Of a stretch of 64,000 bases of DNA, positions 1 through 18,163 are shown piece after piece. This stretch comes from an uncultured Verrucomicrobiae bacterium (GTDB lineage Bacteria > Verrucomicrobiota > Verrucomicrobiia > Limisphaerales > UBA11358). The notes under the pieces are model-generated. The model made no database searches and was not told the origin of the DNA. It saw nothing but the letters and a program-made list of their open reading frames with translations. The stretch spans positions 175,664 through 239,663 of the forward strand of contig CAVQGB010000005.1 in the NCBI GenBank assembly GCA_963711945.1, in the 5' to 3' direction. The position numbers were made by a program, and so were the translations under genes. The number at the start of each line of letters is the position of its first letter. Position 1 is the stretch's first letter.

Positions 1-658
1 GAACGTTCAATGGGTGGCCGCCGGATTCGATCCGCGCGCGTTGCCAAAGTTGACTTAAGGCAACCCACATCATCGTTACATCTGAGTAAGCTTTGCAGGT
101 TTCGGGATCCGCTTTCGCGAAAGCGAAAGCCAAATAGCGGTCTTGGTTGACGGTGATCAAAGCGCTTGTGCCAATTGGAAAGCTTTTGGTTTTTCCATCC
201 GTTTTTTTGACTTCAGTCCCGGCAACTCCCCGGAGCTGTTCGTCCACTTGCCGGTCAAACGATTCCACGCCACCTCCGAAGCAATTTGTCAGGAAAGCAC
301 CATGCAAGCTTTTGTCCGATACTGGTTTTCCAAGCTTGCTGTCGAAAAATTCACTGACCGCAATTGCTCGGATGCCGTCCTGCTTGAAAAGATCGCCAAA
401 TATGACTTCGATTGTCGTGTTTGTGGTGGCAATTTTGATTTCAATCTTGGACGGCTTCCACACCTGTTTTAGTCCGTAGCAAAGGCTCACGATGATGACA
501 ACGGTGAGCGGAAGCATGCCCTCGATCTTAACGCCAGGCATAAAATGCGTCACACCCCGGATGATTGTGAACAGGACGCTGAAAGCCGTGAAGACATAAC
601 CTGCCGTCTTCCATGGGTGGCGAGTGATGCCGCGCAAAAGGTCTTTGAGGGATTGCAT
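1..658 (-). CDS. Hypothetical membrane-anchored (2-TM) protein, truncated by the window edge; cytosolic domain possibly Macro/SLOG-like
   Basis: Hand translation of the minus strand from ATG at 658: MQSLKDLLRGITRHPWKTAGYVFTAFSVLFTIIRGV...MLPLTVVIIVSLCYGL (two hydrophobic helices), then IEVIFGDLFKQDGIRAIAVSEFFDSKLGKPVSDKSLHGAF... The frame stays open to position 1. It is absent from the ORF track because it has no stop codon in the window. Confidence 0.5.
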   Translation of the reverse strand, partial: MQSLKDLLRGITRHPWKTAGYVFTAFSVLFTIIRGVTHFMPGVKIEGMLPLTVVIIVSLCYGLKQVWKPSKIEIKIATTNTTIEVIFGDLFKQDGIRAIAVSEFFDSKLGKPVSDKSLHGAFLTNCFGGGVESFDRQVDEQLRGVAGTEVKKTDGKTKSFPIGTSALITVNQDRYLAFAFAKADPETCKAYSDVTMMWVALSQLWQRARIESGGHPLNV

Positions 659-669
659 AGTCATGATGA

Positions 670-2196
670 TTATCTATGTGGCACGCGCAACTCGCCCGAC
701 AGCAGCTTCGGCAGCAGCGCGTCGCGCAGCGCAGCGAGCGTGCGGGATTCGTGGAGATTGGCGATCCATTTTGCGAATAACGGATGCACCGTTTTATCGA
801 ACTTCGCCAGAGTCGCGTCATCAGGAATCATCGTCGGAAAATCAGCGACGATTTGCTGGCTCAAATTCTGTTGCGCTGAACCTCGTGTTTGTTGTTCCAA
901 TGCAGCCACAGATGAGGCCATGTGCAAATAGATGAAATACCGCATTTCCTTTTTGGGAATTAGTCCGCAGCAAGCTTGGTTCGAGCACATGCCGTCGCCA
1001 AGAAAACAAACTTGTCCGGCTGTCGCACCATAAAGAGCTACGACTGTCGTTGCGGCAGGCCACAGCTTGGCGCTGCTGTTCGCAAGCCCTTCTTCGGAAA
1101 TATAATTCTCCGCCTTTGTTACGATGGCTTGTCGAACTTCGCCGGATGTGAGCCAAGGAATTGTGGCTGGTGTCCAGTAACGAGGTTCGTCGCGCTTTGG
1201 CGTGCCGCCATTTTCAACGCGCTCACAGCAATCGCGTAACTTGCCTTCGTGCCAGCTTTTGGGGAGGGCGGATTGGGTGGCGTCCACGAACCAGGATTTG
1301 AACAGGCTCTGGGCCAGCGCCTCCAGCGTCTCGTTCATCCGCCGGTTCAACTCAATCTTGTCGTCCAGCGCACCCAACACCGACGCAATCGCTCGTTGTT
1401 CTTTAATGTCCGGCTTTGGCACGTCAAAACTTTCAATCATGCCTTTGGTGAGCGCATTGCGTGTTGCACCTGCGCCTGCCAATGTCAGCATTTGCTCCTG
1501 CATTTGTGGCGAGACCAGAAAATAACGCAGAAAAGTTGGATTAATTTCGTCGGGGTCAGGCCGAATGATAGCAACGTGCTGATTGACGCGGGCGGGCAAA
1601 ACTTCTTTCGGAGCTTGGCAACAGCGAGCAACCGAATCGCCAGTGATGTTTAGAAGCACATCGCCGGCGGAAACTTCCACGTTGCTTAAATCATCCGCCT
1701 GCTCTTTGCTAATGAACGCCAAGCCGTGATTGGTGAATCGGTTGTTGTGGACATTTTGGCTGCGGATTAGCGAGAACGGTCCAGATTTAAGGTAGGTTTC
1801 ACCTCCACCGCGCGGTGTCGCACCGCTGCCAATTTTCTTGCACACGTTTCCAAGACGGATTGTTGGCCACTCGCTCCCGCTGGCGACAGCGTTTTTCCTT
1901 TCATAAAACACCCGCCCATATTTCTGAATGTGCTTTTCCACATCCGAGTTGGTGATTTTGGCACGGATGACGAGGTCGGCTTCAAAGGGCAACTCCAAAC
2001 TACCAATCCGTGACCGGACGACGACTAAATCAGCGAGGTTGAGGTCGTCTCCTTCGAGGGCAAGGTCAAGGTCAGATGCTCCGCGAAAAGTGCCGATAGC
2101 TCGCGAACCAAACAGAACCGCGCGCCTTATCTTCGGGAATGCCTCCAGCACTGAGAGGATTCCCTGCCTGTCGCGTTCTGTTAGTCCATCGGTCAC
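670..2196 (-). CDS. hsdS: Fusion protein: N-terminal MNT-type nucleotidyltransferase domain plus a complete Type I R-M specificity subunit (two target-recognition domains)
   Basis: 508-aa ORF. Residues 30-46, GSRAIGTFRGASDLDLA, match the GSx(9-10)DxD minimal NTase motif. Residues ~110-508 have HsdS architecture (LGNVCKKIGSGATP..., central helix DIKEQRAIASVLGALDDKIELNRRMNETLEALAQSLFKSWF, C-terminal LRDALLPKLLSGEL). The GTG start overlaps the upstream stop (GTGA at 2193-2196). Confidence 0.85.
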   Translation of the reverse strand: MTDGLTERDRQGILSVLEAFPKIRRAVLFGSRAIGTFRGASDLDLALEGDDLNLADLVVVRSRIGSLELPFEADLVIRAKITNSDVEKHIQKYGRVFYERKNAVASGSEWPTIRLGNVCKKIGSGATPRGGGETYLKSGPFSLIRSQNVHNNRFTNHGLAFISKEQADDLSNVEVSAGDVLLNITGDSVARCCQAPKEVLPARVNQHVAIIRPDPDEINPTFLRYFLVSPQMQEQMLTLAGAGATRNALTKGMIESFDVPKPDIKEQRAIASVLGALDDKIELNRRMNETLEALAQSLFKSWFVDATQSALPKSWHEGKLRDCCERVENGGTPKRDEPRYWTPATIPWLTSGEVRQAIVTKAENYISEEGLANSSAKLWPAATTVVALYGATAGQVCFLGDGMCSNQACCGLIPKKEMRYFIYLHMASSVAALEQQTRGSAQQNLSQQIVADFPTMIPDDATLAKFDKTVHPLFAKWIANLHESRTLAALRDALLPKLLSGELRVPHR

Positions 2197-2597
2197 GCGC
2201 CCTTGGCAAGTTTATTCAGCTTTTCCACACAGGCCCGGAGCATGGGTTCGAGCTTTTCTTTGATCAGCGCAATTGCCTGTTGGGCAATGTCATGTTCATA
2301 CGTGTGGCTGAAAAGATTCCGGCTTTCCAGCGCCTCAAGCCATTCATCTACATCGGTCAGCAATTCCATCTCGAACGCCTTGTTGATGGTTTCTCGCGGA
2401 CTATTGACGGCATAACCCTCAAACGTGAGTTTGTCCTTCAAAGTCTTCCAGCAAAGCTCAAACGTGAATTCGTAGGTCTGAACCAGTCCGGCGACTTCAA
2501 GTTCGTTGTATTCGTCCTGATCGCAGGCATCTTCCAGCCGCTTGAACGCCTTGTTCAGATTTTGCAGTCGTTGTATCCAGCGGTTTTCGTTGCTCAT
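2193..2597 (-). CDS. HEPN-domain protein (HI0074-like nucleotidyltransferase substrate-binding family), putative toxin partner of the MNT domain
   Basis: The internal ATG at 2597 of ORF 2193..2822 gives [24 protein letters not shown]...[12 protein letters not shown] (Rx4H HEPN motif). The ATGA overlap with the hsdM stop (2594-2597) supports this start. The upstream part of the tracked ORF is Arg-rich out-of-frame hsdM sequence. Confidence 0.8.
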
Positions 2598-4260
2598 GCT
2601 TTTCCTGGTTTGTTGTGCTCGCTGAGAGTAACCAAATTCTTCCGGATTGTCTTTTCCAGTTTCGCCGATTCCGCGAACTGTTCTTCCAGCGTCGCGGTGA
2701 GGCGTTTCATCTTTTGCTCGAACGGTTCGCCGTCGTCTTCCATGTCTGCCGCGCCCACATAACGACCGGGCGTGAGGACGTATCCATGCGTCTGGATTTC
2801 TTCGAGCTTCACAGATTTGCAAAAGCCGGGTTCGTCCTGGTAGGGCGCGTCACTCCGTGCGCGCCGCTCACTTGCTTGCCACCAGCGGCTGGCAGGACTG
2901 CCAGCCCTACCTGGTTTCCACGCATGGTAGCAGTCGGAAATTTTGGCAATTTCCTCGGCAGTCAGTTCCCGGTGGATGCGGTCAACCAGCACGCCCATTT
3001 TCCGCGCATCAATGAAAAGGGTTTCACCGCGCCGGTCGCGGCGTTTGTGGTTCTTTTTGTCGCGGGCCAGAAACCAGAGGCAGACGGGAATTTGCGTGGT
3101 GAAAAACAACTGGCCGGGCAGCGCGACCATGCAATCCACGAGGTCGGCTTCAATCAAGGCTTTGCGAATCTCGCCTTCGTTCGAGGTCTGCGTGGACATT
3201 GAACCGTTCGCCATGACGAATCCCGCCACGCCCACGGGCGAGAGGTGATGGATGAAATGTTGAATCCAGGCGTAGTTGGCGTTGTTCACCGGCGGCATCC
3301 CGAATTTCCAGCGCACGTCCTGCCGCAGGTTTTCGCCGCCCCAATCGCTCATGTTGAACGGCGGGTTGGCGAGAATGAAATCGGCCTTGAGGTCGGGATG
3401 CAAATCCGCCCGGAAGCTGTCGGCGTTGCGCGGGCCGAGATTGGCGTCAATGCCGCGAATGGCGAGGTTCATCCGCGCCAGTTTCCAGGTGGTGTAGTTG
3501 GATTCCTGCCCGTAAACCGCGATGTCGCCCACGCGTCCGCCGTGTTCTTCCACGAATTTTTCCGATTGACACGAACATGCCGCCCGAACCGCAGCACGGA
3601 TCGAACACGCGGCCTTTGTAGGGTTCAAGCATGGCGACGAGCACCTGCACGACGCATTGCGGGGTGTAGAACTCGCCGCCGCCCTTGCCTTCCGCGCTGG
3701 CGAACTTGCCGAGAAAGTATTCATAGACGCGCCCGAGCACGTCCTTGGATTTCGCCGCCGATTCGTTGAAGCCGATGTTGCTGATGATGTCCACGAGTCC
3801 GCCGAGCCGGACTTTGTCGAGGCTGGGCCGGGCGTAATCGCGCGGCAGCACGCCTTTGAGCGTGGGATTCTCGCGCTCAATCGCGCCCATCGCGTCGTCA
3901 ATGACCTTGCCAATCTCCGGCGACTTGGCCTTGGCCTTGATGGTGTGCCAGCGGGCTTCGGGCGGCAGCCAGAAGACATTCGCGGCCATGATATTCGTCG
4001 CGGTTCTCGGCGGCTTCGGCGCGTTGCGGTTCGTCTTTGATGAACCATTCGCTCTTGGGATCGGAGAAGCCGAACAGCAGTTGCTCGCGTTTTTCCTCGA
4101 AGGCGTCGGAGATGTATTTCAGGAAGATGAGGCCGAGGCAGACGTGCTTGTATTCCGAGGCGTCCATGTGCCCGCGCATCTTGTCGGCGGCGGCCCAAAG
4201 CTGGGCTTCAAAGTCGAGAGCGGAGCCGTTGGCGGTTTTCTGACTATTTCCCTTAGCCAT
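2594..4260 (-). pseudogene. hsdM: Type I R-M DNA methyltransferase subunit HsdM, interrupted by two frameshifts (near 3990 and near 3571)
   Basis: Three frame pieces join into one Hsd[57 protein letters not shown]... comes from ORF 3898..4260. [13 protein letters not shown]...[34 protein letters not shown] comes from ORF 3447..3989. [11 protein letters not shown]...[11 protein letters not shown]... comes from ORF 2594..4198. The SAM motif DPCCGSGG and catalytic NPPF are present. Confidence 0.85.
2839..2911. repeat. GC-rich palindromic repeat element inside the hsdM 3' region (GGTAGGG...CCCTACC termini)
   Basis: GGTAGGGCGCGTCACTCCGTGCGCGCCG ... GGCTGGCAGGACTGCCAGCCCTACC. The first 28 nt are identical to 10394-10421 in lpdA. 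There are two internal hairpins. It is translated in frame as ...[10 protein letters not shown]... Confidence 0.8.
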
Positions 4261-4353
4261 GATGGAAAGGGAGTGTGCGCCTGAAGGTCGTTCGCGTCAA
4301 TTCCTGCCTGTAGTTGGACAGCGGTTGTCCATGCACCGGAGTAAAATGCCGGG

Positions 4354-4575
4354 ATGAATGCCGCACGATGGTTCCAGCGCCGGGAAGATTATCAGCCGCC
4401 CCAAACGCCGGCAGACAGCCAGTTTCGGCGGTTCAAGGTGTCCTGTCTCAAATGCGGCAGTTTCAAGCTGCGGGTGATCGGCGAATTTGATTCGGATGCG
4501 GGCGAATTGAAGATTTACCTTTTCTGCCCGTCGTGTCGCGAGCGCGAACAAGTCCTTGCGGACTGCCACCATTAA
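4354..4575 (+). CDS. Small zinc-ribbon-like hypothetical protein
   Basis: 73-aa ORF with two CxxC pairs (CLKCGS...CPSCRE). No recognisable family. Confidence 0.4.
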   Translation: MNAARWFQRREDYQPPQTPADSQFRRFKVSCLKCGSFKLRVIGEFDSDAGELKIYLFCPSCREREQVLADCHH

Positions 4576-4598
4576 CAAAGTTCGGCCTGTTTGCCGCT

Positions 4599-4841
4599 TC
4601 AACGGTGAAGCGTCTGCGGACTTATGAAGGCACCGACAAGGATCACCACAAATCCAGCCAGTTGGAGAAAAAATGGTTTCTTGGCCTCGGACCAATGCAC
4701 GATCAGAAAAAATAGAGAGACAATGGGAAGGAACAGGCAGGCTAGCCCCCACCAGATACTTGTCCGGAAAGCGGCAACCAAGAACAACAAGCCACCAATA
4801 AGACAAATGATGACTCCCAAAAGAATAATCGCGGTTCCCAT
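4599..4841 (-). CDS. Small integral membrane protein (3 predicted helices)
   Basis: 80-aa ORF, MGTAIILLGVIICLIGGLLFLVAAFRTSIWWGLACLFLPIVSLFFLIVHW... The hydrophobic pattern is typical of small membrane proteins. Confidence 0.5.
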   Translation of the reverse strand: MGTAIILLGVIICLIGGLLFLVAAFRTSIWWGLACLFLPIVSLFFLIVHWSEAKKPFFLQLAGFVVILVGAFISPQTLHR

Positions 4842-5198
4842 ATTTTTAGTAGCCGTTTTTTGCAGGTTGAAGATTCAGGCCTTCGGTGTCAACGGGGAAT
4901 TCTATATTGGGGAATTCGGCGGAGTGACGAAACTTGGCTGCCGGAATGGAGCGGCAACCCGGGCGGAGTGAAGCGGTGTGCCGTTCGGTCGCGTGGGGGT
5001 CTTGGGGCAAGCCAGTCTTTCGGCTTACGGAGCCTTTTCCGTTAGCTGAAAGTCTGGCGCGGGGGCGGGTGCAAATTCATCGCGACGGAACGGGCACACA
5101 AGCGGAACGGAGGCCGGATTGACGCGGAATGCAGGCTGCCAAGTATGGTCACGACTTCGGGCGGGAAACGAAATTGCGCGTGCGGTGTTGAAATTATC

Positions 5199-6008
5199 AT
5201 GTCGGAAGAAGCGGAGAAAAAGTTAGCTGCCATAAGACCGGGTCGCAAGGAAACCGCGGCTCATCTAAAAAACGTAGAAGAAATTCAAATTGATACAGCA
5301 AAGCGTCGGCAAGATTGGTTAAAACGGTTGGCGAGCGAATATATCAAGCTTGAAACCAAGATGCCGGTAACAAATTTTCTACCCGACGAGTGTTGCCCGA
5401 AATGGGTTGAAAATATTGAACGAGAAGTGGGGGCGACCATGTTTCCAGTCGCGAAGCTCAAGGAAGAATTGAAACTCACCCCGCGACGCCTGGCAGCCAT
5501 TATCGGACATCAATGCGCGATAGCTGTTTGGCTGATGGAATGGGTTGAAAACCTTCTTGAAAAACCGCAACCCGTGGGGAATGCAAAATTAACGCCGGAG
5601 CAAATCAAACAAGGCGAAGAATTTTTGATTATGCTGGTTGATGGTTGGTATCCGGCTCTGCGACGGCTTGCAAAAAGGGCTTTGTGCTCGTGCATTGATC
5701 AGCCCTACGACGTTATGAAAGATTTTTTGCTGGCGTATGCAGATGCCTTTGCTCAAAAACCCACCGGGCGCGGCTTGGGCAGTTTTGGCAGTTCGGCCAT
5801 AGAGATTTACCACTTTATGCTGTTCCACTGGCGGATTGTTGAACGGCTAAATTCGGTTCACCATCTCCATGAGGTGCTGGTCAAGGTTTTTGGTCCATAT
5901 CGGACTGGCGACTTGAAACGAACGGAAAAAATTTGTCAAAGAATCGGTCTTCATTATCGTAAGCCGGGGCGTCCTCCGAAAATCGAAACAATTCAGACAC
6001 CCACCTAG
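5199..6008 (+). CDS. Hypothetical protein (element cargo), C-terminal basic HTH-like tail
   Basis: ORF 5145..6008; the likely start is MSEEAEKKLAAIRPG at 5199. It ends ...KICQRIGLHYRKPGRPPKIETIQTPT. GC is lower than the flanks. Confidence 0.5.
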   Translation: MSEEAEKKLAAIRPGRKETAAHLKNVEEIQIDTAKRRQDWLKRLASEYIKLETKMPVTNFLPDECCPKWVENIEREVGATMFPVAKLKEELKLTPRRLAAIIGHQCAIAVWLMEWVENLLEKPQPVGNAKLTPEQIKQGEEFLIMLVDGWYPALRRLAKRALCSCIDQPYDVMKDFLLAYADAFAQKPTGRGLGSFGSSAIEIYHFMLFHWRIVERLNSVHHLHEVLVKVFGPYRTGDLKRTEKICQRIGLHYRKPGRPPKIETIQTPT

Positions 6009-6192
6009 ACTGGCTGTCGGTATTACTACAGTTCGCGTTGTGGTTTATTCATGACGTGTGCGCAATTCTTCATCTGAATAATTCGTTGAACGTCGCAAGA
6101 CGTTTCAGCGGGCTTCGCCACGTTCATTTCCGCACGGTGCTCTGCCGGTCGCGCGGAATCGATCAACCGGCAGAATCGAAAGGACAACCAAA

Positions 6193-6480
6193 ATGGTAGT
6201 CAAACTGGAAGTATTCAAGACCGTCCACAACACGTGGCCGGCCAAAAACGGAATGGCAGCGGGCGAATCATACGACCTGCTGTGCATTGATGTCAGCAAT
6301 CCACCGGAACACCGGATGGAAGAGATGCTGTTCTACCGGACAAAACCGGAAGAACGCGAAGCCCACTACGTCAACGGCACGGGCAAAGTCATCACGGTTG
6401 GCGTTGCCAAGATTCGGCACGCGGACAAGGGCGGCAAAGCTACCATCATCGGGAGCATCATCCCGGAAGCCAAAAAGTAA
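6193..6480 (+). CDS. Hypothetical protein (element cargo)
   Basis: 95-aa ORF lying 7 nt upstream of the Rep gene on the same strand. No motif recognised. Confidence 0.4.
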   Translation: MVVKLEVFKTVHNTWPAKNGMAAGESYDLLCIDVSNPPEHRMEEMLFYRTKPEEREAHYVNGTGKVITVGVAKIRHADKGGKATIIGSIIPEAKK

Positions 6481-6486
6481 AAACTT

Positions 6487-7140
6487 ATGGCTAAAAATCC
6501 TCGGATAGACAGAGACTGGCGTGATCCGATCCGCAAATCCGAGGTCGCCACAGACTTTGGCATCACACTGGCAAGAATCCAGTGGGACCTTTTTGCAACG
6601 CCGACTTTTAAGGGCAACGTCCCTCGAACAAATATTTGTTACGGCATGGCGTTTCGCTGGTTGCAAGAATTGGCCAAAGTCTGTGGCGTGCCCTATAAGC
6701 GCCTTCTCATAGCACTGCGCGGTGAAGAAGGCGAAAAGAATGGGCGTTTCCACTTCCACTGTCTGGTGGGGGGAACTGCTACGCGCAACTATCACACGCT
6801 GCAACACCAGGCTGAACATCTGTGGAAGCATCAGACAGGTGGGGCGCGTGTAGATGTTCGACAATATGACCGCTCACTGGCCGGAGCGGAATACGTTGCG
6901 AAGTGCCTTGGGGCAAACGCATACGAGCTGAACAAATACAGCTTTGCGAACACGGTGACGCTGTCTGCATCTGTTATCCGGTTGATAGCGGGTATTGATG
7001 CGAGTGGAGACAGACGCTGCGGACAGGACACATGGAGAAACGGGCTGGTGACGAAAGCGACGGGGTTTAACCAGGTGGTTCCCGCTGTGAGTAAGCTTTG
7101 CGATGAGACAGCCTCCCAGATTGCGGGCATGGCGCATTGA
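6487..7140 (+). CDS. HUH-superfamily rolling-circle replication initiator (Rep)-like protein
   Basis: Three motifs appear in the canonical order: LFATPTFKG (motif I-like), GRFHFHCLVGG (HUH motif) and AEYVAKCLG (catalytic Tyr YxxK-like motif). Confidence 0.6.
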   Translation: MAKNPRIDRDWRDPIRKSEVATDFGITLARIQWDLFATPTFKGNVPRTNICYGMAFRWLQELAKVCGVPYKRLLIALRGEEGEKNGRFHFHCLVGGTATRNYHTLQHQAEHLWKHQTGGARVDVRQYDRSLAGAEYVAKCLGANAYELNKYSFANTVTLSASVIRLIAGIDASGDRRCGQDTWRNGLVTKATGFNQVVPAVSKLCDETASQIAGMAH

Positions 7141-7395
7141 TGCTGCTGGTTTACGGGGACAAGTTCCCTGCGGTGGCTAAAAGACAATTCGCCGACAATC
7201 CGCCTTGGATGCTGGGATAAAACGCCAAAGCTACTGTGGCGTGTGTCAAATGAACGGGATTCCTTTGACGGTGGAGCGGTGGGCGGGCGCGCCAGCGCCC
7301 GCCCGCCGCCCGCCGGCAAAGGCTCCTTGTAGAAATCCTATGCCCAGATGTGATGGCGAATTAACCCAAAACACTGGACGGATGCAGGCGAAGTT

Positions 7396-7737
7396 TTGAT
7401 GAGAGACGACCAACATCGGTTTTTGATGCTGCTGGGCCAGTTGCCGGCCCGCCTGACGGCGGAGCAGGCGGCTTGGGTGCTCAACTGCCAGCCGCATGAC
7501 GTGCCGGTGCTGGTCGCGGCGCGGCTGCTCAAGCCGTTGGGCAATCCTCAAGCCAATAGCACCAAGTTTTTCGCGACGACTGATTTGCTTGAACAAATCA
7601 AAGACCGCAATTGGCTGGTGCGGGTCTCCACCGCCATTTATCAGCACTGGCACAAACAAAATGCCCGCAAGAAAAGCCGTTTCCCGAACGGAACGGGAAA
7701 CGGCCAAACCGCGCTGCCGATGGCATCGGTTGGTTAA
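7396..7737 (+). CDS. Putative excisionase / HTH DNA-binding protein
   Basis: 113-aa ORF containing LTAEQAAWVLNCQPHDVPVLVAARLLKPLG (HTH-like). It converges on and overlaps the integrase 3' end by 4 nt. Confidence 0.45.
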   Translation: MMRDDQHRFLMLLGQLPARLTAEQAAWVLNCQPHDVPVLVAARLLKPLGNPQANSTKFFATTDLLEQIKDRNWLVRVSTAIYQHWHKQNARKKSRFPNGTGNGQTALPMASVG

Positions 7738-8768
7738 GCGGCGGAGAATTGCATCGGCACGACGTTGGAAGCCGTCGCCATTTTGCTTTCAAAATCTTCA
7801 AGGGCTGGAATCAACACCTTTGCCTTCCGCGCATAAGCCCGATGCACCGCTTTGCTATTGTGGCCCAGCGCCTCCTGCGCGAAGCGTTCGGGATAGCCGC
7901 AAGTCTTGGCGCGTTCCGCCCACGCGTAGCGGTAGGAGTGAAGCGAAACCCCGGAGACGCCGACGAGACGGCAGCGTCGGATGAACGCCTTGGCCCGGTC
8001 GGATTCCTTCCACTGGACGACTTGCGGGAACAAGCAGCCCGTCGTCGGACGCCGCTCAAGAATCTTCACGACGGCCTCGCCAATGCGGATTATGGCTTGT
8101 GTGCCTGTTTTCATACGGGCATAGGAGATTGTCCGGTCGGTCCAATCTACATCCTCGGCGCGCAACGAAGCCATGTCGGTCTGCGAGCCGCCCAAGTGCC
8201 AGAGCAGTTCGTAGAAGTCGCGCACTTCGAGGTTTCGCTCGCCGGCCATAATTTTCTGGTGTTCCTCCCAAGTGATGCCGCGCTTGTCTTTGAAGTGGAT
8301 GGCGGGCCAGCGCTTCCGGGCCAGCACCGGCCACGGCAGCCACGACATGTCGAGGGCGAAGTTTTGCACCCGGCGCAAAAAGATGTTGCTGCAAACCGTG
8401 CCAGTCTCCAGCACGCGCATGAAGTGTTCTGGGCGGGTTTCCAAGACGGGTAAACCGCGAATCGCATCGAATGCCTTGTCGCGCATGGCTGTCCGCCAGC
8501 GAATCAGGGTCGGCCCCTGTTTCAGTGTGGCCGCCTCCTCCATGACGTGCTGCCAGGTGCGGGCGGCGATCTGCGGGTCGCTGGCTGCGAGATAGGCGCG
8601 GGCGATTTGCAGGTTGATGGCGGGCTGCCTTTCCGCCTCGTTCTTGGCGTTAAGGAATCGCCCAGCCTCTGCCCGGTCACGGGTGTGGAGGCTGGATTGC
8701 TTGCCGGTGGTCGTGTCTTCGCAATAGAAGATTTCACCGCGTTTAAACAGGATGAACCGTTGTCTCAT
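7734..8768 (-). CDS. int: Tyrosine recombinase / phage-type integrase
   Basis: 344 aa. The C-terminal catalytic region is ...LHSYRYAWAERAK...ALGHNSKAVHRAYAR (H-x-x-R ... Y). It lies adjacent to the tRNA 3' end. Confidence 0.9.
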   Translation of the reverse strand: MRQRFILFKRGEIFYCEDTTTGKQSSLHTRDRAEAGRFLNAKNEAERQPAINLQIARAYLAASDPQIAARTWQHVMEEAATLKQGPTLIRWRTAMRDKAFDAIRGLPVLETRPEHFMRVLETGTVCSNIFLRRVQNFALDMSWLPWPVLARKRWPAIHFKDKRGITWEEHQKIMAGERNLEVRDFYELLWHLGGSQTDMASLRAEDVDWTDRTISYARMKTGTQAIIRIGEAVVKILERRPTTGCLFPQVVQWKESDRAKAFIRRCRLVGVSGVSLHSYRYAWAERAKTCGYPERFAQEALGHNSKAVHRAYARKAKVLIPALEDFESKMATASNVVPMQFSAA

Positions 8769-8883
8769 GTTGATGCCTTTCGGTTCTGAATGGTGAACCT
8801 GTGCGGCATCGTCGCGTTAGCCAGTAGTGGGCAAGTATCAGCAAATTCTAACGAATGGTGGCCGGTAGCTTTGGCGGTCACGG

Positions 8884-8906
8884 TTTCACTGACACTTTCA
8901 CTGACA
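8884..8906. repeat. Tandem direct repeat TTTCACTGACA x2 between int and the tRNA (candidate arm-type recombinase site)
   Basis: gTTTCACTGACAcTTTCACTGACAg is read directly. It lies about 50 nt from the tRNA 3' end. Confidence 0.5.
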
Positions 8907-8954
8907 GTTGGCCTTCGCGTTCCCGTAACCTGTTGGAAAATCCCCACTTGGAAA

Positions 8955-9029
8955 TGGAGCCAATGGCCGGGATTGAACCGGCGACCGACGGTTTACGAAA
9001 CCGTTGCTCTACCGCTGAGCTACATTGGC
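8955..9029 (-). tRNA. tRNA-Thr (anticodon CGU)
   Basis: Minus strand folded by hand: GCCAATG TA GCTC AGCGGTA GAGC A ACGGT TTCGTAA ACCGT CGGTC GCCGG TTCAATC CCGGC CATTGGC T CCA. All four stems pair, the CCA is encoded, and the anticodon loop is TT-CGT-AA. Confidence 0.9.
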
Positions 9030-9334
9030 TTGACCCGCCGTTACTCCGGCGTTTTCATGGTTGGCTGGATTTTATTGTCTGCAATTGCATTCGTGCAACA
9101 TTCCGCAAAACCGCGCGAAATCATGACAACTCAAACGCCAACCGCGCCAGTGTGTATAGCCGCACACAGCGCGCCGGTCAAGTCAACTGTGACCGATGCT
9201 TTTCGGCTTCTATTGTTGATCCTGTAAACCGACGCGCGAAGTTCGCGGTCGAATCGGAGTGTTGCGCCACCACGAACGACTCTGGCCCGCCATCGTCGAA
9301 CGCCAGCCCGTATGAGCTTTCAACCCATTTGCGG

Positions 9335-10849
9335 TTATTTTCGTTTTGGCGGGGCGTGGATGCATTCGCCGTGCAAGGCGTGCGCGGCTTCCATCCAGGC
9401 TTCGCTGAAGGTCGGGTGGGCGTGAATTGTCCGGCCCAGCTCTCGCGTGGTCAGTTCGGCGCGAATTACAGCGGCAGCCTCCGCGATGAGTTCCGTCGCG
9501 TGCGGGCCGACAGCGGCGGCACCGAGCAGTTGGTCGGTCGTGGCGTCGGCAATCCATTTCACAAACCCGGCGGTCTCGCCGGTCGCGATACCCTTGCCGA
9601 GGCCGGCAAAACGGAACTTGCCGGTCTTCACGGCGCGATTCTGCTTCTTCGCGTCGTCCTCGCTCATGCCGGCGGTGCCGACTTCCGGCGACGTGAAAAT
9701 CACATTCGGCACAATTGTGTCGTGCCGCCGCAATTTAGCGGGGCAGGCATCTTGCCTGCCATCAGACAGGCTGGAAGCCTGTCCCACTAACGCATTTTCG
9801 GCGGCGGCGATGCCCTGCGTGGTGGCGTAATGCGCGAGCTGGATTTTGCCGGTCACGTCGCCGATGGCGAATATGTTCGCGACCTGCGTGCGGCAATAAT
9901 CGTCCGCCTCGATGATCCCGCGTTCGTTCGTTTTCAACCCGGCGTTTTCCAGTTTCAAACCGTCGGTCACGGGTTTGCGGCCCACGGCGCAGAGCAGCAA
10001 TTCCGCCGTCAAAGTTTCATCTCCGAATTTGCCGCTAATGACAGTGGCGCCATCACCACCGGCGGAGATATTTTCCAGCGCCTTGCCCGTCAGCACGCGG
10101 ATGCCGAGGTTTTTCTCCAGGTGCGCGCGGACTTCGCGGCGCACGTCGGCGTCGAGCAGCAGCAGAATGTCCTTCAGCAATTCGACGATGGTGACCTTGA
10201 CGCCGAGCATCGCGGCCATGCAGGCGAGTTCGCAGCCGATGAAGCCGCCGCCGAGAACAATCATCGTGGCGGGCAATTTCTGGATGTCGAGAAACGCGCG
10301 GCTTTCCACGACGCGCTCGTGCTTCGGCAAAAAGCCGGGCATGGCCGAGGTGGAGCCGGTGGCGATGATGATTTTCTTCGCGCTGATGCGCTCGGTAGGG
10401 CGCGTCACTCCGTGCGCGCCGTTTTCCGGTGGGGCGAGGCTACCGACGAGCCGGCTCGCGGGGACGCTCGCCCCACCGCTGATTTCGATGGTATTGCGGT
10501 CAACAAAACTCGCCGTGCCTGTAAATTGTTTCACGCCGTTGGCGGTGAGCAGCGAGCCGATGCCGCCGCGCAATTGCTGGACGGCCTTGTCCTTGTTGCC
10601 AATCATTTTCGCGTAATCCACCGAGGCGTTCCTGACGGTAATGCCGAATTTTTCCGCGTGTTTGATTTTCTCGAAGGTCTCGGCGGCGGCGATGAGCGCC
10701 TTGGTGGGGATGCAGCCCCAATTCAGGCAGGCGCCACCGAGCCTTTCCTTTTCGATGATGGCGACCCTTGCACCGAGTTGAGCGGCGCGGATGGCCGCCG
10801 GGTAACCGCCGGGACCGGCGCCGATGACTGCAATATCAAATGTTTCCAT
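9335..10849 (-). CDS. lpdA: Dihydrolipoyl dehydrogenase (E3), carrying two in-frame repeat insertions
   Basis: METFDIAVIGAGPGGYPAAIRAA... (FAD motif), redox-active CLNWGCIPTK, C-terminal HAHPTFSEA. At 504 aa it is roughly 40 aa longer than a typical E3. Confidence 0.95.
   Translation of the reverse strand: METFDIAVIGAGPGGYPAAIRAAQLGARVAIIEKERLGGACLNWGCIPTKALIAAAETFEKIKHAEKFGITVRNASVDYAKMIGNKDKAVQQLRGGIGSLLTANGVKQFTGTASFVDRNTIEISGGASVPASRLVGSLAPPENGAHGVTRPTERISAKKIIIATGSTSAMPGFLPKHERVVESRAFLDIQKLPATMIVLGGGFIGCELACMAAMLGVKVTIVELLKDILLLLDADVRREVRAHLEKNLGIRVLTGKALENISAGGDGATVISGKFGDETLTAELLLCAVGRKPVTDGLKLENAGLKTNERGIIEADDYCRTQVANIFAIGDVTGKIQLAHYATTQGIAAAENALVGQASSLSDGRQDACPAKLRRHDTIVPNVIFTSPEVGTAGMSEDDAKKQNRAVKTGKFRFAGLGKGIATGETAGFVKWIADATTDQLLGAAAVGPHATELIAEAAAVIRAELTTRELGRTIHAHPTFSEAWMEAAHALHGECIHAPPKRK
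9738..9787. repeat. Palindromic repeat (two hairpins) inside lpdA
   Basis: GCGGGGCAGGCATCTTGCCTGCCATCAGACAGGCTGGAAGCCTGTCCCAC, with hairpins GGCAGGCA/TGCCTGCC and ACAGGCT/AGCCTGT. It is translated as ...VGQASSLSDGRQDACPAKL... Same family as 14358-14404. Confidence 0.8.
10394..10476. repeat. Composite palindromic repeat inside lpdA
   Basis: GGTAGGGCGCGTCACTCCGTGCGCGCCG (identical to 2839-2866) followed by GGTGGGGCGAGGCTACCGACGAGCCGGCTCGCGGGGACGCTCGCCCCACC (same family as 38738-38805). It is translated as [28 protein letters not shown]. Confidence 0.85.
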
Positions 10850-12487: not shown

Positions 12488-14893
12488 TTAAAGGATTTTG
12501 CAGGCGGCGGCCATGAGGTCGTTGACGTTCGGGAGGAACGCTGCCTCGAGAATGTGCGATTGTGGCGCGATGCCGTTTTTGGCCCCGACGCGTTTCACGG
12601 GGGCGTCGAGATAGTCGAACACCGCGTCCGAAATCGTCGAGGCGATTTCGCCGGTGTAACTGCCGATGTGAATCGCCTGGCTGGCGACAACGCACCGGCC
12701 GGTCTTTTGCACCGAGCGCAAAATCGTGTCGAGGTCGAGCGGCACGAGCGAGCGCAGATCAATCACCTCGGCGCTGACGTTTTTCTCCGCCTTCAATTTG
12801 TCCGCCGCCTTCAGGCAGTCGTGGACGAGCGGACCCCACGTCACGAACGTGATGTCCGAGCCTTCACGTTTTACGTCGGCCACGCCGAGCGGCACGAGAT
12901 AATCTTCCGCCGGCACCGGGCCTTTCATGCCATACAAACCCTGCGATTCGATGAACATCACGGGATTGTTGTCACGAATAGCGGATTTCAACATGCCCTT
13001 CGCGTCATACGGCGTTGCGGGATAAACCACGTAGAGGCCGGGGATGTGGCAGAACATGGATTCGAGCGTCTGCGAATGCTGGCCACCGTAGCCCTTGCCC
13101 GCGCCGGCGGAAACGCGCAGCACGAGCGGCACCTCGGTCTGTGCGCCGCTCATGTAATGCCATTTCGCGGCCTGGTTGCTGATCTGGTCGGACGACATCA
13201 ACGCGAAATCGAAATACATCAACTCCATGACCGGACGCAGGCCAATCATCGCCAGGCCAACGCCCGTGCCGCAGATGCACGCCTCGGAAATCGGCGTGTT
13301 GAACACACGGTCGCGCCCGAAGGATTCCATCAATCCCTTCGTCGCCTTGAACGCGCCGCCGTAATCGGCCACGTCCTCTCCGTAAAACAGGACGCGCTGA
13401 TCGCGCTTCATTTCCTCCATCATCGCCTCGCGAATGGCGTCCTTGTAGGTGATTTCGCCGTTGACACGCTTGATTTCCGGAAGCGCATCAATGATTTCAA
13501 CGTTCGCGAATTCCGCCGGCACGGTCTCGCCCTTCGTGTCGGTGAACATGTATTTGATGACGTCCCCGGCAACCGGGTCGGCGGCGGCGGCGGCGCGCCT
13601 GGCGGCTCGGGCGTTGCGGTCGCGGACGGCAGCTTCGAGCGCGGCGAGTTCCTTCGCGGTCGAAACCTTGTTCTCCAGAATCTGCGCTTTGAATGTTTCG
13701 ATGGGATCAACGGACTTCCACGCGGCTTCCTCTTCCTTTGTGCGATATTCATTGCGCGGGTCGCTCAACGAGTGGCCCCAATAACGGTAGGTGTCGCAAT
13801 CGAGCAGCACCGGGCCTTCGCCCTTCCGGCAAATTTCCGTGGCGCGATTCACGGCATCGCGAACGGCGAGCGGGTCCATGCCGTTGACGATTTCGGCGTG
13901 CATGTTGTTGTCGGCAAAACCGGCGGCGCGGCGCGCGATGCGGCTCACGCCCATCACTTCATCGTCGGTGCGGTGCGTCATGCCGTAATGATTGTTGGTG
14001 ATGAGGAAGATCATCGGCACGCCGAACTTGCGATCGGCCAGATGGTTCGTGAATTGCGCCTGCGTGGCGTAGTTCAATGACTCCAAAACCACGCCGTTGG
14101 CGAAGGCGCCGTCGCCGGCGAAACAGCAAACCACCGCGTCCTTTTTCTGATAACGCAGCCCAACCGCTGCGCCCGTGGCAATCGGCACGCCGCCGCCGAC
14201 GATCGCGTTCGCGCCGAGATGTCCAACGGAGAAATCCGCAATGTGCATCGAGCCGCCGCGGCCTTTGCAATAGCCGTCCTCTTTTCCGAACAATTCGCAA
14301 ATCATGCGATAAACGTGTTGTTCGAGCGCGGCTTCCAGCAGTTCCTCTCTCGATACTGTGGCGGGCATCTTGCCTGCCAACAGCAGGCTGGAATCCTGCT
14401 CCACCAATCGTTTTCTCAATTGTTCGTCGCTCATTTCGCGGATGGCGACCGTGCCCTTGGCAAGGCTTTCGCCGTGGCCGCGGTGCGTGCTGGTAATTTT
14501 GTCGGCGATGTGCAGCACGGAGCACGCGCCCGCCGCCGTGCCTTCCTGCCCGACCGAGACGTGCGTCGGCCCGCGATAATTGAATTCGCGGATCGGCTCA
14601 TACGCGCCGGAGCGGAGTTTGACGATCATTTCCTCCAGTTCGCGGATCATCAGCATGTCCTCGAACAGATTCACCGCCTCCTCTCTGGTGATTTTGTTTG
14701 CGGCCAGCTCCTGTTTTAGACTGCGCTGGAAGCAGTAGGCTGAAATCTTGCCGCAGTTGATTTCGAACGGCTCGAACTTGGGCCGCATATTGCTCAAATA
14801 CGTCGCCGACTTTCTCTTATTCGGCTTTCCACCCCTCTTCTCGTCCGGCTTTTCCAGTATTGCAGTTGTCATAATATTCAAGTTGGAGATCAC
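12488..14893 (-). CDS. 2-oxoacid (pyruvate/acetoin/branched-chain type) dehydrogenase E1 component, fused alpha and beta subunits
   Basis: 801 aa. The alpha part carries the TPP motif GDGAFANGVVLESLN. The beta part reads ...YGEDVADYGGAFKATKGL...PISEACICGTGVGLA... The tracked start is GTG at 14893; ATG at 14872 (MTTAILEK) is an alternative. Confidence 0.9.
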   Translation of the reverse strand: MISNLNIMTTAILEKPDEKRGGKPNKRKSATYLSNMRPKFEPFEINCGKISAYCFQRSLKQELAANKITREEAVNLFEDMLMIRELEEMIVKLRSGAYEPIREFNYRGPTHVSVGQEGTAAGACSVLHIADKITSTHRGHGESLAKGTVAIREMSDEQLRKRLVEQDSSLLLAGKMPATVSREELLEAALEQHVYRMICELFGKEDGYCKGRGGSMHIADFSVGHLGANAIVGGGVPIATGAAVGLRYQKKDAVVCCFAGDGAFANGVVLESLNYATQAQFTNHLADRKFGVPMIFLITNNHYGMTHRTDDEVMGVSRIARRAAGFADNNMHAEIVNGMDPLAVRDAVNRATEICRKGEGPVLLDCDTYRYWGHSLSDPRNEYRTKEEEAAWKSVDPIETFKAQILENKVSTAKELAALEAAVRDRNARAARRAAAAADPVAGDVIKYMFTDTKGETVPAEFANVEIIDALPEIKRVNGEITYKDAIREAMMEEMKRDQRVLFYGEDVADYGGAFKATKGLMESFGRDRVFNTPISEACICGTGVGLAMIGLRPVMELMYFDFALMSSDQISNQAAKWHYMSGAQTEVPLVLRVSAGAGKGYGGQHSQTLESMFCHIPGLYVVYPATPYDAKGMLKSAIRDNNPVMFIESQGLYGMKGPVPAEDYLVPLGVADVKREGSDITFVTWGPLVHDCLKAADKLKAEKNVSAEVIDLRSLVPLDLDTILRSVQKTGRCVVASQAIHIGSYTGEIASTISDAVFDYLDAPVKRVGAKNGIAPQSHILEAAFLPNVNDLMAAACKIL
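14358..14404. repeat. Palindromic repeat inside the E1 gene
   Basis: GTGGCGGGCATCTTGCCTGCCAACAGCAGGCTGGAATCCTGCTCCAC. Same family as 9738-9787. It is translated in frame as VEQDSSLLLAGKMPAT. Confidence 0.8.
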
Positions 14894-14897
14894 GCTT

Positions 14898-14942
14898 TAG
14901 CGTGCTTCGCCACAGACAACCTGAAGGTTGAACTCCAACGAA
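14898..14942 (-). repeat. 45-nt conserved intergenic motif, copy 2 (immediately upstream of the E1 start)
   Basis: TAGCGTGCTTCGCCACAGACAACCTGAAGGTTGAACTCCAACGAA, 40/45 identical to copy 1. The minus-strand reading contains GGAG and the CAACCT/AGGTTG hairpin just 5' of the E1 start. Confidence 0.75.
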
Positions 14943-14958
14943 GCGCCGCGAAAATAAT

Positions 14959-15738
14959 TCACACTCTCACCACCTTGATTCCTTTCCTTGCCAGTTCCTT
15001 TGCGAACGTTTTGTCGATGAACTTGTCGGTGACGATCGCGTGGATGTGTTCCAGCCCGCCGGCACGCGCGAAGGCCACCTTGCCGGCCTTGCCGGAATCG
15101 GCGAGCAGAATCACCTGCCGCGCCTGGCTCGTCACCAGTTCCTTCGTGTAAGCCTCGCTGGGATCCGTCGTCGTGAGTCCTTCATTAAGCGTCAGCCCGA
15201 TGGTGCCCATGAACGCTTTGTCCACGTGCAGTTCCTGCAGGACAAAGCGCGTCAGCGGCCCGACCATCGTCTGGCTCAAGCGGCGCAATTCACCGCCGAT
15301 TAAAATCAACCGCGGCCCGCGCCCGGCCAGTTCGTGCGCCGCGCGCAGGGAATTGGTCACCACCGTCAAGTTCGTGCGGTCATGCAACAGCCGGGCGAGC
15401 TCCAGCACCGTGCTGCCGCCGTCCAGGTAAATCGTGTCGCCCGGCTCGACAAATTGGAGCGCCGCCCCGGCGATATGATGTTTTTCGCGAGCGGCAATCG
15501 AGGTCTTGTCGTCAAACAGCGGTTCTTCCAGCCGGCTTTCGATGCTGACCGCGCCGCCGTGGACGCGCCGGATGGCGCCGGCCTGTTCGAGCTGATCCAG
15601 GTCCCGGCGGACCGTGGCCGGGGACACCCGGAGCTGCCGGCAGATTTCCTCGATGCGCATCACGCCCTGGCCGCGAATCAATTCGCGGATGTTGTCGTGG
15701 CGCCGGTGCGCCAGATCTTTATGTCGGCCGTTCAGCAT
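14959..15738 (-). CDS. DeoR-family transcriptional regulator
   Basis: N-terminal HTH (RHDNIRELIRGQGVMRIEEICRQLRVSPATVRRDLDQLEQAGAIRRVHGGA) and a C-terminal DeoR sugar-binding domain (IYLDGGSTV...VVTNS...DKAFMG). Confidence 0.9.
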   Translation of the reverse strand: MLNGRHKDLAHRRHDNIRELIRGQGVMRIEEICRQLRVSPATVRRDLDQLEQAGAIRRVHGGAVSIESRLEEPLFDDKTSIAAREKHHIAGAALQFVEPGDTIYLDGGSTVLELARLLHDRTNLTVVTNSLRAAHELAGRGPRLILIGGELRRLSQTMVGPLTRFVLQELHVDKAFMGTIGLTLNEGLTTTDPSEAYTKELVTSQARQVILLADSGKAGKVAFARAGGLEHIHAIVTDKFIDKTFAKELARKGIKVVRV

Positions 15739-15742
15739 GGGC

Positions 15743-15795
15743 TGATTGTAATTGATTGAATATAATCAAAACAAGATTGAAATCAATCATAATCG
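15743..15795 (-). promoter_or_regulatory. AT-rich promoter/operator region upstream of deoR with two palindromes
   Basis: TTGATT-gaatat-AATCAA at 15752-15769 and GATTGA-aa-TCAATC at 15775-15788. The minus strand reads TTGATT-16 nt-TATATT, a sigma70-like promoter overlapping the palindromes. Confidence 0.4.
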
Positions 15796-15842
15796 CTCAA
15801 TGCCAAAAAACAACGGCATCCGGCGGATTCGGGGAAGGAGAC

Positions 15843-16955: not shown

Positions 16956-17100
16956 AGTATTTCACAGATTCGGAGTCTGTCGTCTGATAACGCAATGCCG
17001 CCGTGCGCACAATAAAATTCAATCGCACAATTGACCGCCGGTCGGATTGAACATTGCGCCAGGATGCCGCCCGCGAAATTTCGTGCCGCGGTTCGCGGCT

Positions 17101-17128
17101 TTGATTTTTGACCGTGATTTTCTATAGT
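17101..17128 (+). promoter_or_regulatory. Candidate sigma70-type promoter for the AEC transporter gene
   Basis: TTGATT (17101-17106), a 16-nt spacer, then TATAGT (17123-17128). The ATG at 17140 implies a very short leader. Confidence 0.3.
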
Positions 17129-17139
17129 ATGGTCAAGCG

Positions 17140-18126: not shown

Positions 18127-18163
18127 TGATTCGGCGCTTGATGCCACTTCATGGTGAAATAAA

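Follow-up and report, generated by a model that had tools for sequence, protein, structure and literature searches.

Integrative elements that combine a tyrosine integrase with a protein resembling those that initiate rolling-circle replication (RCR) are known, and the integrases of streptococcal integrative mobilizable elements (IMEs) often target the ends of tRNA or ribosomal-protein genes (PMC5704250). ICEBs1 undergoes rolling-circle replication and has a functional single-strand origin (sso) (PMC4595007). Here we analyzed a 64,000-nt stretch of contig CAVQGB010000005.1 from an uncultured Verrucomicrobiae bacterium. This whole stretch is referred to as the window, all coordinates are window positions, and the loci of relatives are designated L001, L002, etc. 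In its left part, beside a tRNA-Thr(CGU) gene, the window carries a tyrosine integrase gene and a gene for a small protein with the motifs of HUH-type Rep proteins. Our analysis indicates that this region is probably the integrase-proximal part of a genomic island at the tRNA gene, and that the island belongs to a widespread family of Verrucomicrobial integrative elements and probably continues leftward. The conserved core of the family consists, in order, of a protein of ~300 aa, a 95-aa protein with an oligonucleotide/oligosaccharide-binding (OB) fold, the HUH Rep, an intergenic region with two hairpins, a 113-aa open reading frame (ORF), a divergently oriented integrase gene, and a tandem TGTCAGTGAAA motif. 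To our knowledge, mobile elements of the Verrucomicrobia have scarcely been characterized.

That an integrase can be joined to an RCR-type initiator is a principle already known in both Firmicutes and Actinobacteria. Like the present locus, Firmicutes IMEs with relaxases related to RCR initiators (Rep_trans/MobT, Rep_2, PHA00330; PMC5704250, PMC5357655) are small, have a tyrosine integrase at the 3' end of a tRNA or other conserved gene, encode an HUH protein akin to rolling-circle initiators, and lack mating-pore genes. In both cases the passenger genes are variable and include restriction-modification genes, and tandem arrays are possible. The present elements differ from these IMEs in their Verrucomicrobia host and in their Rep (182 aa in most relatives), which scores below the cutoff for REP_ORF2-G2P, does not belong to Rep_trans or Rep_2, and has a putative relaxase role only. 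They differ further in having an obligatory OB-fold partner gene and no TcpA-type coupling protein among the proteins scanned.

In ICEBs1 and Tn916 (NicK/Orf20, ssb, sso1; PMC4595007), as we propose here, the excised circle is nicked by an HUH protein, and ssDNA-binding functions and a structured sso are present. ICEBs1, however, is much larger, encodes its own conjugation machinery, and has an sso that resembles plasmid ssos by sequence, whereas the sso of the present family is a candidate. The actinomycete integrative and conjugative elements (AICEs) of the pSAM2 type (PMC3429521, PMC3218068) are 9 to 24 kb in size, reside in a tRNA gene, and carry Int and Xis together with the rolling-circle initiator RepSA. 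The combination of integrase and Rep is similar here, but AICEs use an FtsK-like TraB for dsDNA transfer, no counterpart of which was seen in the present locus, and the Rep families are unrelated by sequence. What sets the family apart from these known elements is the phylum, the Rep family, the obligatory OB-fold partner, and the lack of a coupling or transfer gene among the scanned proteins. As far as literature searches show, the family, its origin-like hairpins, and its slot for defense cargo are undescribed.

A conserved gene set at a tRNA-Thr gene and at other chromosomal sites

The tRNA-Thr(CGU) gene (8955-9029, minus strand) was identified by ARAGORN, for which it is the sole tRNA gene of the window, and by Rfam (RF00005, 71.1 bits). 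The gene is intact and marks the integration site and the right junction (attL side) of the element. The integrase gene begins 187 nt from the 3' end of the tRNA; this arrangement, reported in a first-pass annotation made from the sequence, was confirmed by ARAGORN, Rfam, and Pfam. Four ORFs on the plus strand (5145-6008, 6193-6480, 6487-7140, and 7396-7737) are all directed toward the integrase. The GC content is 0.475 to 0.535 across positions 5200 to 7000, compared with ~0.60 to 0.64 in lpdA and beyond, and the 95-aa and 287-aa ORFs do lie in this region, in agreement with the earlier description of two or three ORFs in lower-GC DNA. Scans with Pfam, PHROGs, and NCBIfam gave no match between window proteins and capsid, portal, terminase, or conjugation families, which bears out the earlier statement that such genes are lacking.

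The sample of the family comprised 19 loci in genomes that represent GTDB species, together with 80 loci from metagenomes of peat, bog, lake, and soil. In nearly all of these ~100 Verrucomicrobial loci the 95-aa gene lies directly upstream of the Rep gene, and in most of them the pair is followed by the 113-aa ORF, an integrase gene on the opposite strand, and the tandem motif. Identity to the window proteins is mostly 76 to 92% for Rep, 64 to 99% for the 95-aa protein, 61 to 82% for the 113-aa protein, and 40 to 59% for the integrase. The integration sites vary: the element lies at a tRNA-Ser(CGA) gene in L001, at a tRNA-Thr(UGU) gene in L088, at a tRNA-Thr 3' fragment beside glmS in L002, and at non-tRNA sites in L003, L004, L005, L010, L012, and L019. 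One metagenome-assembled genome (MAG) holds two copies of the family (L013 and L014). Because the pair of 95-aa and Rep genes occurs at differing chromosomal sites, the element is or was mobile.

The first-pass annotation had also considered that the gene set might be syntenic and fixed in all relatives. What we found instead was a variety of sites and the absence of the element after lpdA in two relatives. From lpdA rightward, these two loci (L102 and L103, with LpdA 85% identical) share synteny with the window; after lpdA they have neither the tRNA-Thr gene nor the element. The synteny ends with the stop codon of lpdA, and the genes that these loci have downstream of it do not occur in the window. 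An empty-site comparison by means of LpdA homologs (the best 85 to 86% identical) was uninformative for the boundaries of the element. Many contigs of ~4 kb were considered as possible circular forms; where checked, for example in L001, they were chromosomal fragments.

Integrase, tandem repeat, and attachment sites

The integrase (344 aa; 7734-8768, minus strand) matched Pfam PF00589 (Phage_integrase) with 44.7 bits (E value, 1.6e-11; cutoff, 27.1) and a PHROG integrase family. In an alignment to XerA (4a8e), the HSYR (HxxR) and GH motifs and the Tyr of HRAYARK were retained, and the N-terminal ~45 residues are well conserved in the family. In this alignment, the position of the first catalytic Arg, in residues ~190 to 200, reads S/Q (GGSQTD versus GLRVSE in XerA). 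The S/Q at this position is kept in relatives (GAAQSD in L004). A comparable substitution of the first Arg has been reported for IntDOT.

Between the integrase gene and the tRNA gene lies a tandem 12-nt repeat, TGTCAGTGAAAG TGTCAGTGAAA (8884-8906, minus strand). This direct repeat had been picked out in the first-pass annotation and proved to be real: only 0.02 chance occurrences of the pattern are expected per window, and its core was invariant in 9/9 aligned loci although their integrases share just 40 to 58% identity. The pattern was located in 9 of the first 21 loci. A second tandem copy in the same orientation was present 9 to 13.5 kb away, just downstream of a 119-aa gene, in L003, L032, and L064, and in the latter two, 10-nt direct repeats (TGTGTYCATC) lie immediately outside both tandem copies. 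As read from the sequence, the repeats of L032 and L064 give a classical attP layout of arm site, ~120 nt, core, ~75 nt, arm site, and int. A divergent integrase gene in L042 is preceded at the equivalent position by a different tandem repeat, two copies of CTGCCAGCA, and its start is joined to the element end that carries the 119-aa gene via a seemingly attP-type junction. The attP-like junction of L041 to L043 suggests a tandem array of elements. The repeat at 8884-8906 is probably an arm-type binding site of the integrase.

The tRNA 3' end and the tandem motif are separated by 48 nt in each of three loci: the window, L088 (tRNA-Thr UGU), and L002, where ~30 nt of the tRNA-Thr 3' end is present and the remainder of the tRNA is absent. 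The shared spacing and the tRNA fragment of L002 suggest that attP carries a 3' segment of the tRNA and that crossover occurs within the tRNA.

The annotation had advised aligning the tRNA end against the rest of the sequence to find attR. Searches of positions 1 to 8700 with exact k-mers and local alignment, using the tRNA and the spacer, revealed neither a direct repeat of the tRNA 3' end (≥12 nt) nor a significant local alignment, and the left end is probably outside the window. A 12-mer match at 50661 was rejected as attR: its side of the tRNA is the wrong one, and it does not exceed chance level. A weak tRNA-3'-like stretch at 4944-4980, which had been pointed out earlier, was likewise discarded. 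It is part of a large conserved hairpin of 232 nt (see below), and because this hairpin also occurs in elements with non-tRNA targets, the stretch is not attR. An 8-nt match, GGCCTTCG, at 4878 and 8910 is at chance level and is unsupported by relatives as an att core.

The integrase subgroup without tRNA sites (right flanks of L032, L064, L004, L012, and L019) adjoins short CATCTGTG / ATCCGTG repeat-like sequences. These sequences are recurrent in those genomes and may be REP-like integration targets.

A small HUH Rep

The 217-aa protein encoded at 6487-7140 (plus strand) contains the motifs FATPTF, HFHCLV, and EYVAKCL. That these are three Rep motifs in the expected order, as first annotated, was upheld by an alignment of 50 diverse homologs down to 27% identity, in which there is no variation at T40 of motif I, at H89 and H91 of the HUH motif, or at Y136 of the Tyr motif. 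The residues F36 and F41 of motif I (residues 36 to 41) are ≥90% conserved in the same homologs; H89-F-H91 is invariant in both Rep alignments; and the Tyr motif, EYVxKCL, has a single Tyr, Y136. In the structural model the three motifs fall in a strand (residues 33 to 41), a second strand (87 to 95), and a helix (133 to 140), respectively. The position of the second Tyr in the phiX174-type Y-x-x-x-Y motif is occupied by C140 in the close homologs.

Pfam PF23343 (REP_ORF2-G2P) represents the HUH domain of inovirus G2P and plectrovirus ORF2. The match of the window Rep to this family was remote (23.0 bits; E value, 1e-4) and below the gathering cutoff of 27.8 bits; the Rep of L002 scored 25.2 bits, and 37 of the 50 diverse family members matched at E values of <0.01 (best, 7.8e-7). 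Close homologs, 70 to 95% identical, number at least 238 (clusters at 90% identity) and, where named, are Verrucomicrobia MAG proteins. An exhaustive HMMER search placed them in a wider family of small Rep proteins comprising 531 clusters at 50% identity, with lengths of 170 to 240 aa. The AlphaFold2 (AF2) model of the Rep has a mean pLDDT of 49, and the order of its secondary-structure elements fits that of an HUH nuclease. Foldseek searches with this low-confidence model returned RAYT 4er8 and IS200/IS608 TnpA among generic ferredoxin-like matches, all with E values of ≥0.013, and the Rep profile had no meaningful match among PDB sequences. We accept the 217-aa protein as an HUH Rep-class member of an uncurated family that is remote kin of REP_ORF2-G2P.

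In most relatives the Rep ends at residue 182, where a TGA codon stands in place of the TGG at window positions 7033-7035. Since that stop codon is read through in the window, the last 35 residues of the Rep ORF overlie DNA that is conserved as noncoding.

The sequence fits a Rep that acts as a replicase, as a relaxase, or as both, and any of these roles may apply. If the HUH protein is mainly a relaxase, the element could be a strict IME: a hairpin downstream of Rep would be the origin of transfer (oriT), a co-resident conjugative system would transfer the nicked strand, and replication of the circle would be secondary. There is precedent for such an arrangement, since 118/144 streptococcal IMEs pair putative relaxases related to RCR initiators with integrases and MobT of Tn916 and ICEBs1 does both jobs (PMC5704250), and the element has no transfer genes of its own. 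However, the cargo proteins scanned include no coupling protein (TcpA, FtsK, or VirD4), and the Rep domain is nearest to the phage-type REP_ORF2-G2P, not to Rep_trans or Rep_2. A helper conjugative system was not identified, although no genome-wide search for one was made. We regard the strict IME as possible but somewhat doubtful.

An OB-fold partner and its phage counterparts

The 95-aa protein (6193-6480, plus strand) is encoded immediately upstream of Rep. Its AF2 model (pLDDT, 89.4) has the topology b1-b2-b3-a-b4-b5 of a canonical OB fold, with strands at residues 2 to 15, 24 to 33, 46 to 49, 66 to 76, and 83 to 89 and a helix at residues 52 to 60. The best Foldseek matches were the OB domain of RPA1, the Ff gene V protein, PriB, and single-stranded-DNA-binding protein (SSB), with E values of 0.025 to 0.5; among viral models in BFVD they were an RstB-like protein and the SSB of Thermus phage OH3, with E values of 0.002 to 0.01. 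Both sets are matches at the level of the fold. A profile of the 95-aa protein had no match among PDB sequences. The protein is confidently modeled as an OB fold that resembles the small ssDNA-binding proteins of filamentous phages, and the modeled fold makes it a candidate ssDNA-binding protein.

The filamentous-phage modules Ff gII/gV, CTXphi/RS1 rstA/rstB, and pDolos (PMC4439123; bioRxiv 10.1101/2023.11.28.569023) likewise combine a G2P-like HUH Rep with a small OB-fold protein. Cis-acting hairpins are important in these modules and satellites, which depend on a helper, and both features would apply here as well. Unlike them, the present elements have a tyrosine integrase at a tRNA gene, as opposed to XerCD at dif, and their SSB-like gene precedes Rep. 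They also have no virion genes or known helper, and their similarity to the phage modules is below threshold for Rep and at fold level for the OB protein.

The likeness is nevertheless sufficient to consider an ssDNA satellite that depends on a filamentous (inovirus-like) phage as helper, in which an inovirus-type Rep and OB module would be accompanied by a hairpin acting as packaging signal, and the plus strand would be exported in a helper filament. The Rep domain is nearest to that of inovirus G2P and plectrovirus ORF2; the OB-fold matches include the Ff gene V protein, the RstB-like protein, and the OH3 SSB; the 232-nt hairpin described below is long and favored on the plus strand; and an RCR plasmid packaged by an inovirus has been documented (bioRxiv 10.1101/2023.11.28.569023). 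Yet these structural matches are all at fold level only, the hairpin is missing from most loci, the cargo genes and the integrase are on the opposite strand, and IMG/VR holds no relative of the element. Genes for a pI/Zot morphogenesis ATPase, coat, capsid, or terminase were found neither in window positions 4354 to 8768 nor among the scanned cargo proteins of relatives, so there is no known helper in the loci examined. A phage satellite therefore appears improbable. If it were true, the element would be a P4-like defense-hotspot element built on an inovirus-type replication module. Its plus-strand ssDNA circles, made by Rep and the OB-fold protein once the integrase had excised the element, would be packaged by way of the long hairpin by a filamentous phage of Verrucomicrobia or leave by another form of ssDNA export, and it would ferry exchangeable defense cargo (restriction-modification, and type V-B CRISPR-Cas in L009) between hosts.

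Origin-like hairpins

The intergenic DNA between Rep and the 113-aa ORF is ~90% conserved, which exceeds the conservation of most coding sequence, and contains two hairpins on the plus strand. The smaller one, AACGCCAAAGCTACTGTGGCG (7221-7241), has a 5-bp stem and a 9-nt loop. It occurs exactly once per locus in 73 loci, always on the plus strand and ~735 nt past the Rep start, and is also present in loci without an integrase. Stem position 4 is C-G, G-C, or T-A and position 5 is A-T or G-C; pairing was retained in every variant recovered by flank anchoring, and the loop follows the pattern AAG..A.TG. This hairpin is the best candidate for the nick site of Rep, be it a double-strand origin (dso) or an oriT.

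The second intergenic hairpin (7263-7323, plus strand) is GC rich and of variable length. RNAalifold analysis of 22 loci revealed compensatory changes in 11/26 predicted pairs of the two intergenic hairpins together. Many metagenome contigs stop 50 to 200 nt past Rep, at the GC-rich hairpin (L024, L041-43, L048, L057, L074, and others). These ends fit breaks in assembly at a repeated sequence that exists in multiple variants.

A third structure, an imperfect rod-like hairpin of 232 nt (4924-5155, plus strand), lies upstream of the 287-aa gene. Its predicted minimum free energy as RNA is -124 kcal/mol (z score of -5.7 versus shuffled sequence). As DNA, the plus strand folds at -65.6 kcal/mol (z score, -6.6) versus -49.1 kcal/mol (z score, -4.1) for the minus strand. 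The hairpin is conserved with a sharp onset in 11 aligned copies, in which 17/63 pairs show compensatory changes and many pairs are G.U. Rfam contained no family matching either this hairpin or the GC-rich one; a sub-threshold match to mir-3957 reflects the GC-rich hairpin. The 232-nt hairpin, Rep, and the small hairpin share the plus strand, as would be required of an sso on the displaced strand, and the 232-nt hairpin could be such an origin. It might instead be a packaging signal or encode a leader RNA.

Other core ORFs

The 113-aa ORF (7396-7737, plus strand), which lies between Rep and the integrase gene in most loci, has no family or structure match. The first-pass annotation had labeled it Xis-like with a helix-turn-helix (HTH). 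This label found no support: the protein had no HTH or excisionase match in Pfam, NCBIfam, PHROGs, or a PDB profile search; none of 24 homologs had such a match in Pfam; and hhalign comparisons with AlpA and with Xis of Tn916 yielded probabilities of ≤2%. From where it lies, the 113-aa ORF may encode a regulator or a recombination directionality factor.

The 287-aa protein (5145-6008, plus strand; start probably at 5199) did not match a family in library searches. Counterparts in L012 and L010 that are 49 to 77% identical are clear homologs. The protein is the positional counterpart of the ~308-aa protein that relatives encode upstream of the 95-aa gene. It is possibly a remote homolog of that protein as well, given a weak similarity to the 308-aa protein of L003 (E value, 0.018) and a common C-terminal GRPPK. 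A match of the 287-aa protein to Replitron_HUH (E value, 0.13) was treated as chance.

Upstream of the 95-aa and Rep genes, L002 encodes (8400-9704) an ImmA-like M78 peptidase and divergent HTH repressor pair and a Cro-like HTH gene. This phage-type regulatory switch is not in the window.

Defense cargo and the extent of the element

To the left of the 232-nt hairpin, the window contains a gene for a small membrane protein of 80 aa (4599-4841, minus strand), with no homolog in any fetched locus and of uncertain membership in the element, and a gene for a 73-aa zinc-ribbon protein, zn73 (4354-4575, plus strand), which accompanies methyltransferase cargo. These are followed by type I restriction-modification genes that are probable cargo (1-4260, minus strand; Pfam N6_Mtase [2.8e-75], Methylase_S, Polbeta, and NTase_sub_bind). 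They consist of hsdM (2594-4260), which is distributed over three reading frames; between hsdM and hsdS, an NTase_sub_bind gene (2193-2822); hsdS (670-2196), with a nucleotidyltransferase domain at the N terminus of its product; and an ORF that crosses the left edge of the window (from position 1), all on the minus strand. The GC content across positions 1 to 2800 is 0.49 to 0.56. A nucleotidyltransferase (Polbeta/NTP_transf_2 on hsdS) and HEPN-like NTase_sub_bind pair is embedded in the type I operon (670-2822, minus strand).

The hsdM-zn73 block (2646-4551) has 91% nucleotide identity to L005 and L035, with no further synteny. In L005 the matching block (6554-8470) lies between the 119-aa end gene and the integrase gene, in the order 119-aa gene, hsdR, 417-aa gene, hsdS, hsdM, zn73, ~308-aa gene, 95-aa gene, Rep, 113-aa ORF, integrase, and motif. 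L035 likewise has hsdRMS-zn73 between its 119-aa end gene and the integrase gene. The zn73 protein is 87% identical in L005 and L035, where its gene is beside hsdM, and 51% identical in L003, where it is beside a methyltransferase gene.

Elements of relatives are organized as the 119-aa gene with a second tandem motif, variable cargo, and the core, and they span 9 to 13.5 kb. Members of the family usually carry genes for restriction or another form of defense. In L003 the cargo slot contains PIN and ATPase genes together with a methyltransferase; in L032 and L036 it contains N6-methyltransferases. In L041 to L043 (positions 1-8300) it holds an MmeI-type restriction-modification enzyme, a Ser/Thr kinase, and a 364-aa protein; this cargo is directly left of the 232-nt hairpin, and the 119-aa gene is also to its left. 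The same three loci have a RadC-like JAB gene downstream of the 119-aa end gene. In L009, the stretch at 14209-20193, between the Rep module and a hairpin copy (20334-20565), encodes a Cas4/Cas1 fusion and C2c1/Cas12b, the latter split into two ORFs, with an IS1595 transposase nearby. This looks like a type V-B CRISPR-Cas system carried as cargo of a related element.

An integrase core at a tRNA gene joined to a hotspot with varying defense systems is also seen in P4-like satellites and hitchers (PMC9122126, PMC11389934). The defense slot here holds restriction-modification genes (type I, MmeI-type, and others), PIN genes, and, in L009, what appears to be a type V-B CRISPR-Cas system. In P4, however, the alpha primase-helicase is unrelated to Rep, and the present elements have no capsid-redirecting genes and no known helper.

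By analogy with the layout of relatives, and from the match of the hsdM-zn73 cargo, the element likely continues beyond window position 1. The low GC content across positions 1 to 2800, the ORF that crosses the left edge, and the cargo beside the hairpin in L041 to L043 also speak for a larger element. The first-pass annotation had listed the element at 4842-9029 with a size of ~4 kb. Under that description the locus would be a self-contained integrative rolling-circle replicon that ends at ~4842-4924, and the restriction-modification genes would be unrelated neighbors. Several observations are in keeping with a short element. Conservation with L004, L019, and L009 begins abruptly at 4924, the hairpin of L070 adjoins genes for an RCC1-repeat protein, cytochromes, and sucC, and no relative has a homolog of the 80-aa membrane gene. 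The GGCCTTCG match at 4878 and 8910 would fit its ends but does not exceed chance level, and the tRNA 3' end is not repeated near 4842-4924. Moreover, L041-43 have MmeI-type cargo and the 119-aa gene left of the same hairpin, the hsdM-zn73 genes of the window are 91% identical to cargo inside the elements of L005 and L035 with no other synteny, and a bPH_2 gene that is left of the hairpin in L088 is inside the element in L002. We therefore consider a self-contained element of ~4 kb unlikely. Of the earlier description as an integrative rolling-circle element and not a prophage, the mobile element with integrase and HUH Rep stands, whereas its 4-kb size, its boundary, and its Xis label found no support.

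The frameshifts in hsdM bear on the state of this copy. L005 has an intact HsdM of 585 aa, and the three frames of the window hsdM reflect either a pseudogene or assembly indels. The copy could be an immobilized remnant, once mobile but now fixed at tRNA-Thr and decaying. The split hsdM, the lack of a detectable attR, the read-through of the stop codon of relatives' Rep, and the existence of several clearly truncated relatives without an integrase (L015, L070, and L091) all speak for a remnant. Set against this, the core ORFs (integrase, 113-aa, Rep, 95-aa, and 287-aa) are full length and highly similar to those of relatives, and the arm sites and both hairpins are intact. A decaying remnant is a tentative alternative, which we hold to be less probable than not.

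An exact 28-nt repeat, GGTAGGGCGCGTCACTCCGTGCGCGCCG, occurs at 2839-2866 and 10394-10421, within hsdM and lpdA, two coding regions that are not related. At 504 aa, the LpdA of the window exceeds its 85%-identical homologs (459 to 485 aa) by 20 to 45 aa. The repeat and the longer LpdA suggest a small repeat element that is inserted in frame into genes.

Proposed mechanism and significance

Read as the integrase-proximal part of a longer island, the locus can be fitted to the following scheme. The integrase would bind the tandem arm sites and recombine at or in the tRNA 3' end, excising or integrating the element. Rep would then nick the plus strand of the excised circle in the loop of the 7221-7241 hairpin and thereby start rolling-circle replication or transfer. 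The displaced ssDNA would be coated by the OB-fold protein, as its predicted fold suggests, and the 232-nt plus-strand hairpin, where present, would prime synthesis of the complementary strand as an sso. Since no transfer genes are encoded, spread of the element needs a helper.

A number of results weigh against this interpretation. None of 101 loci or contigs had the terminal overlap of a circular contig (0/101), and the IMG/VR search gave no match. The Rep scored below the curated Pfam cutoff (23 versus 27.8 bits), its model has a pLDDT of 49, and it had no PDB sequence match; the structural matches of the 95-aa protein all have E values of >0.001. The 232-nt hairpin was found in only ~14 loci, and in L070 it directly adjoins housekeeping-like genes. 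The attR, the 119-aa gene, and a second arm site are all absent from window positions 1 to 8900, so the left end is placed by analogy only. Finally, because the window hsdM is frameshifted, this copy may be decaying.

Metagenomes from peat, bogs, lakes, and soil contain the family in abundance. It joins a compact, strongly conserved replication/transfer module (the OB-fold protein, a 182-aa HUH Rep, and hairpins) to fast-evolving integrases and a defense slot. A minimal HUH Rep with a predicted cognate hairpin is directly testable in vitro, and the integrase with its att site and the RCR origin are possible parts for genetic tools in Verrucomicrobia. The family is thus a tractable candidate vehicle for the horizontal spread of defense genes in a poorly studied phylum.

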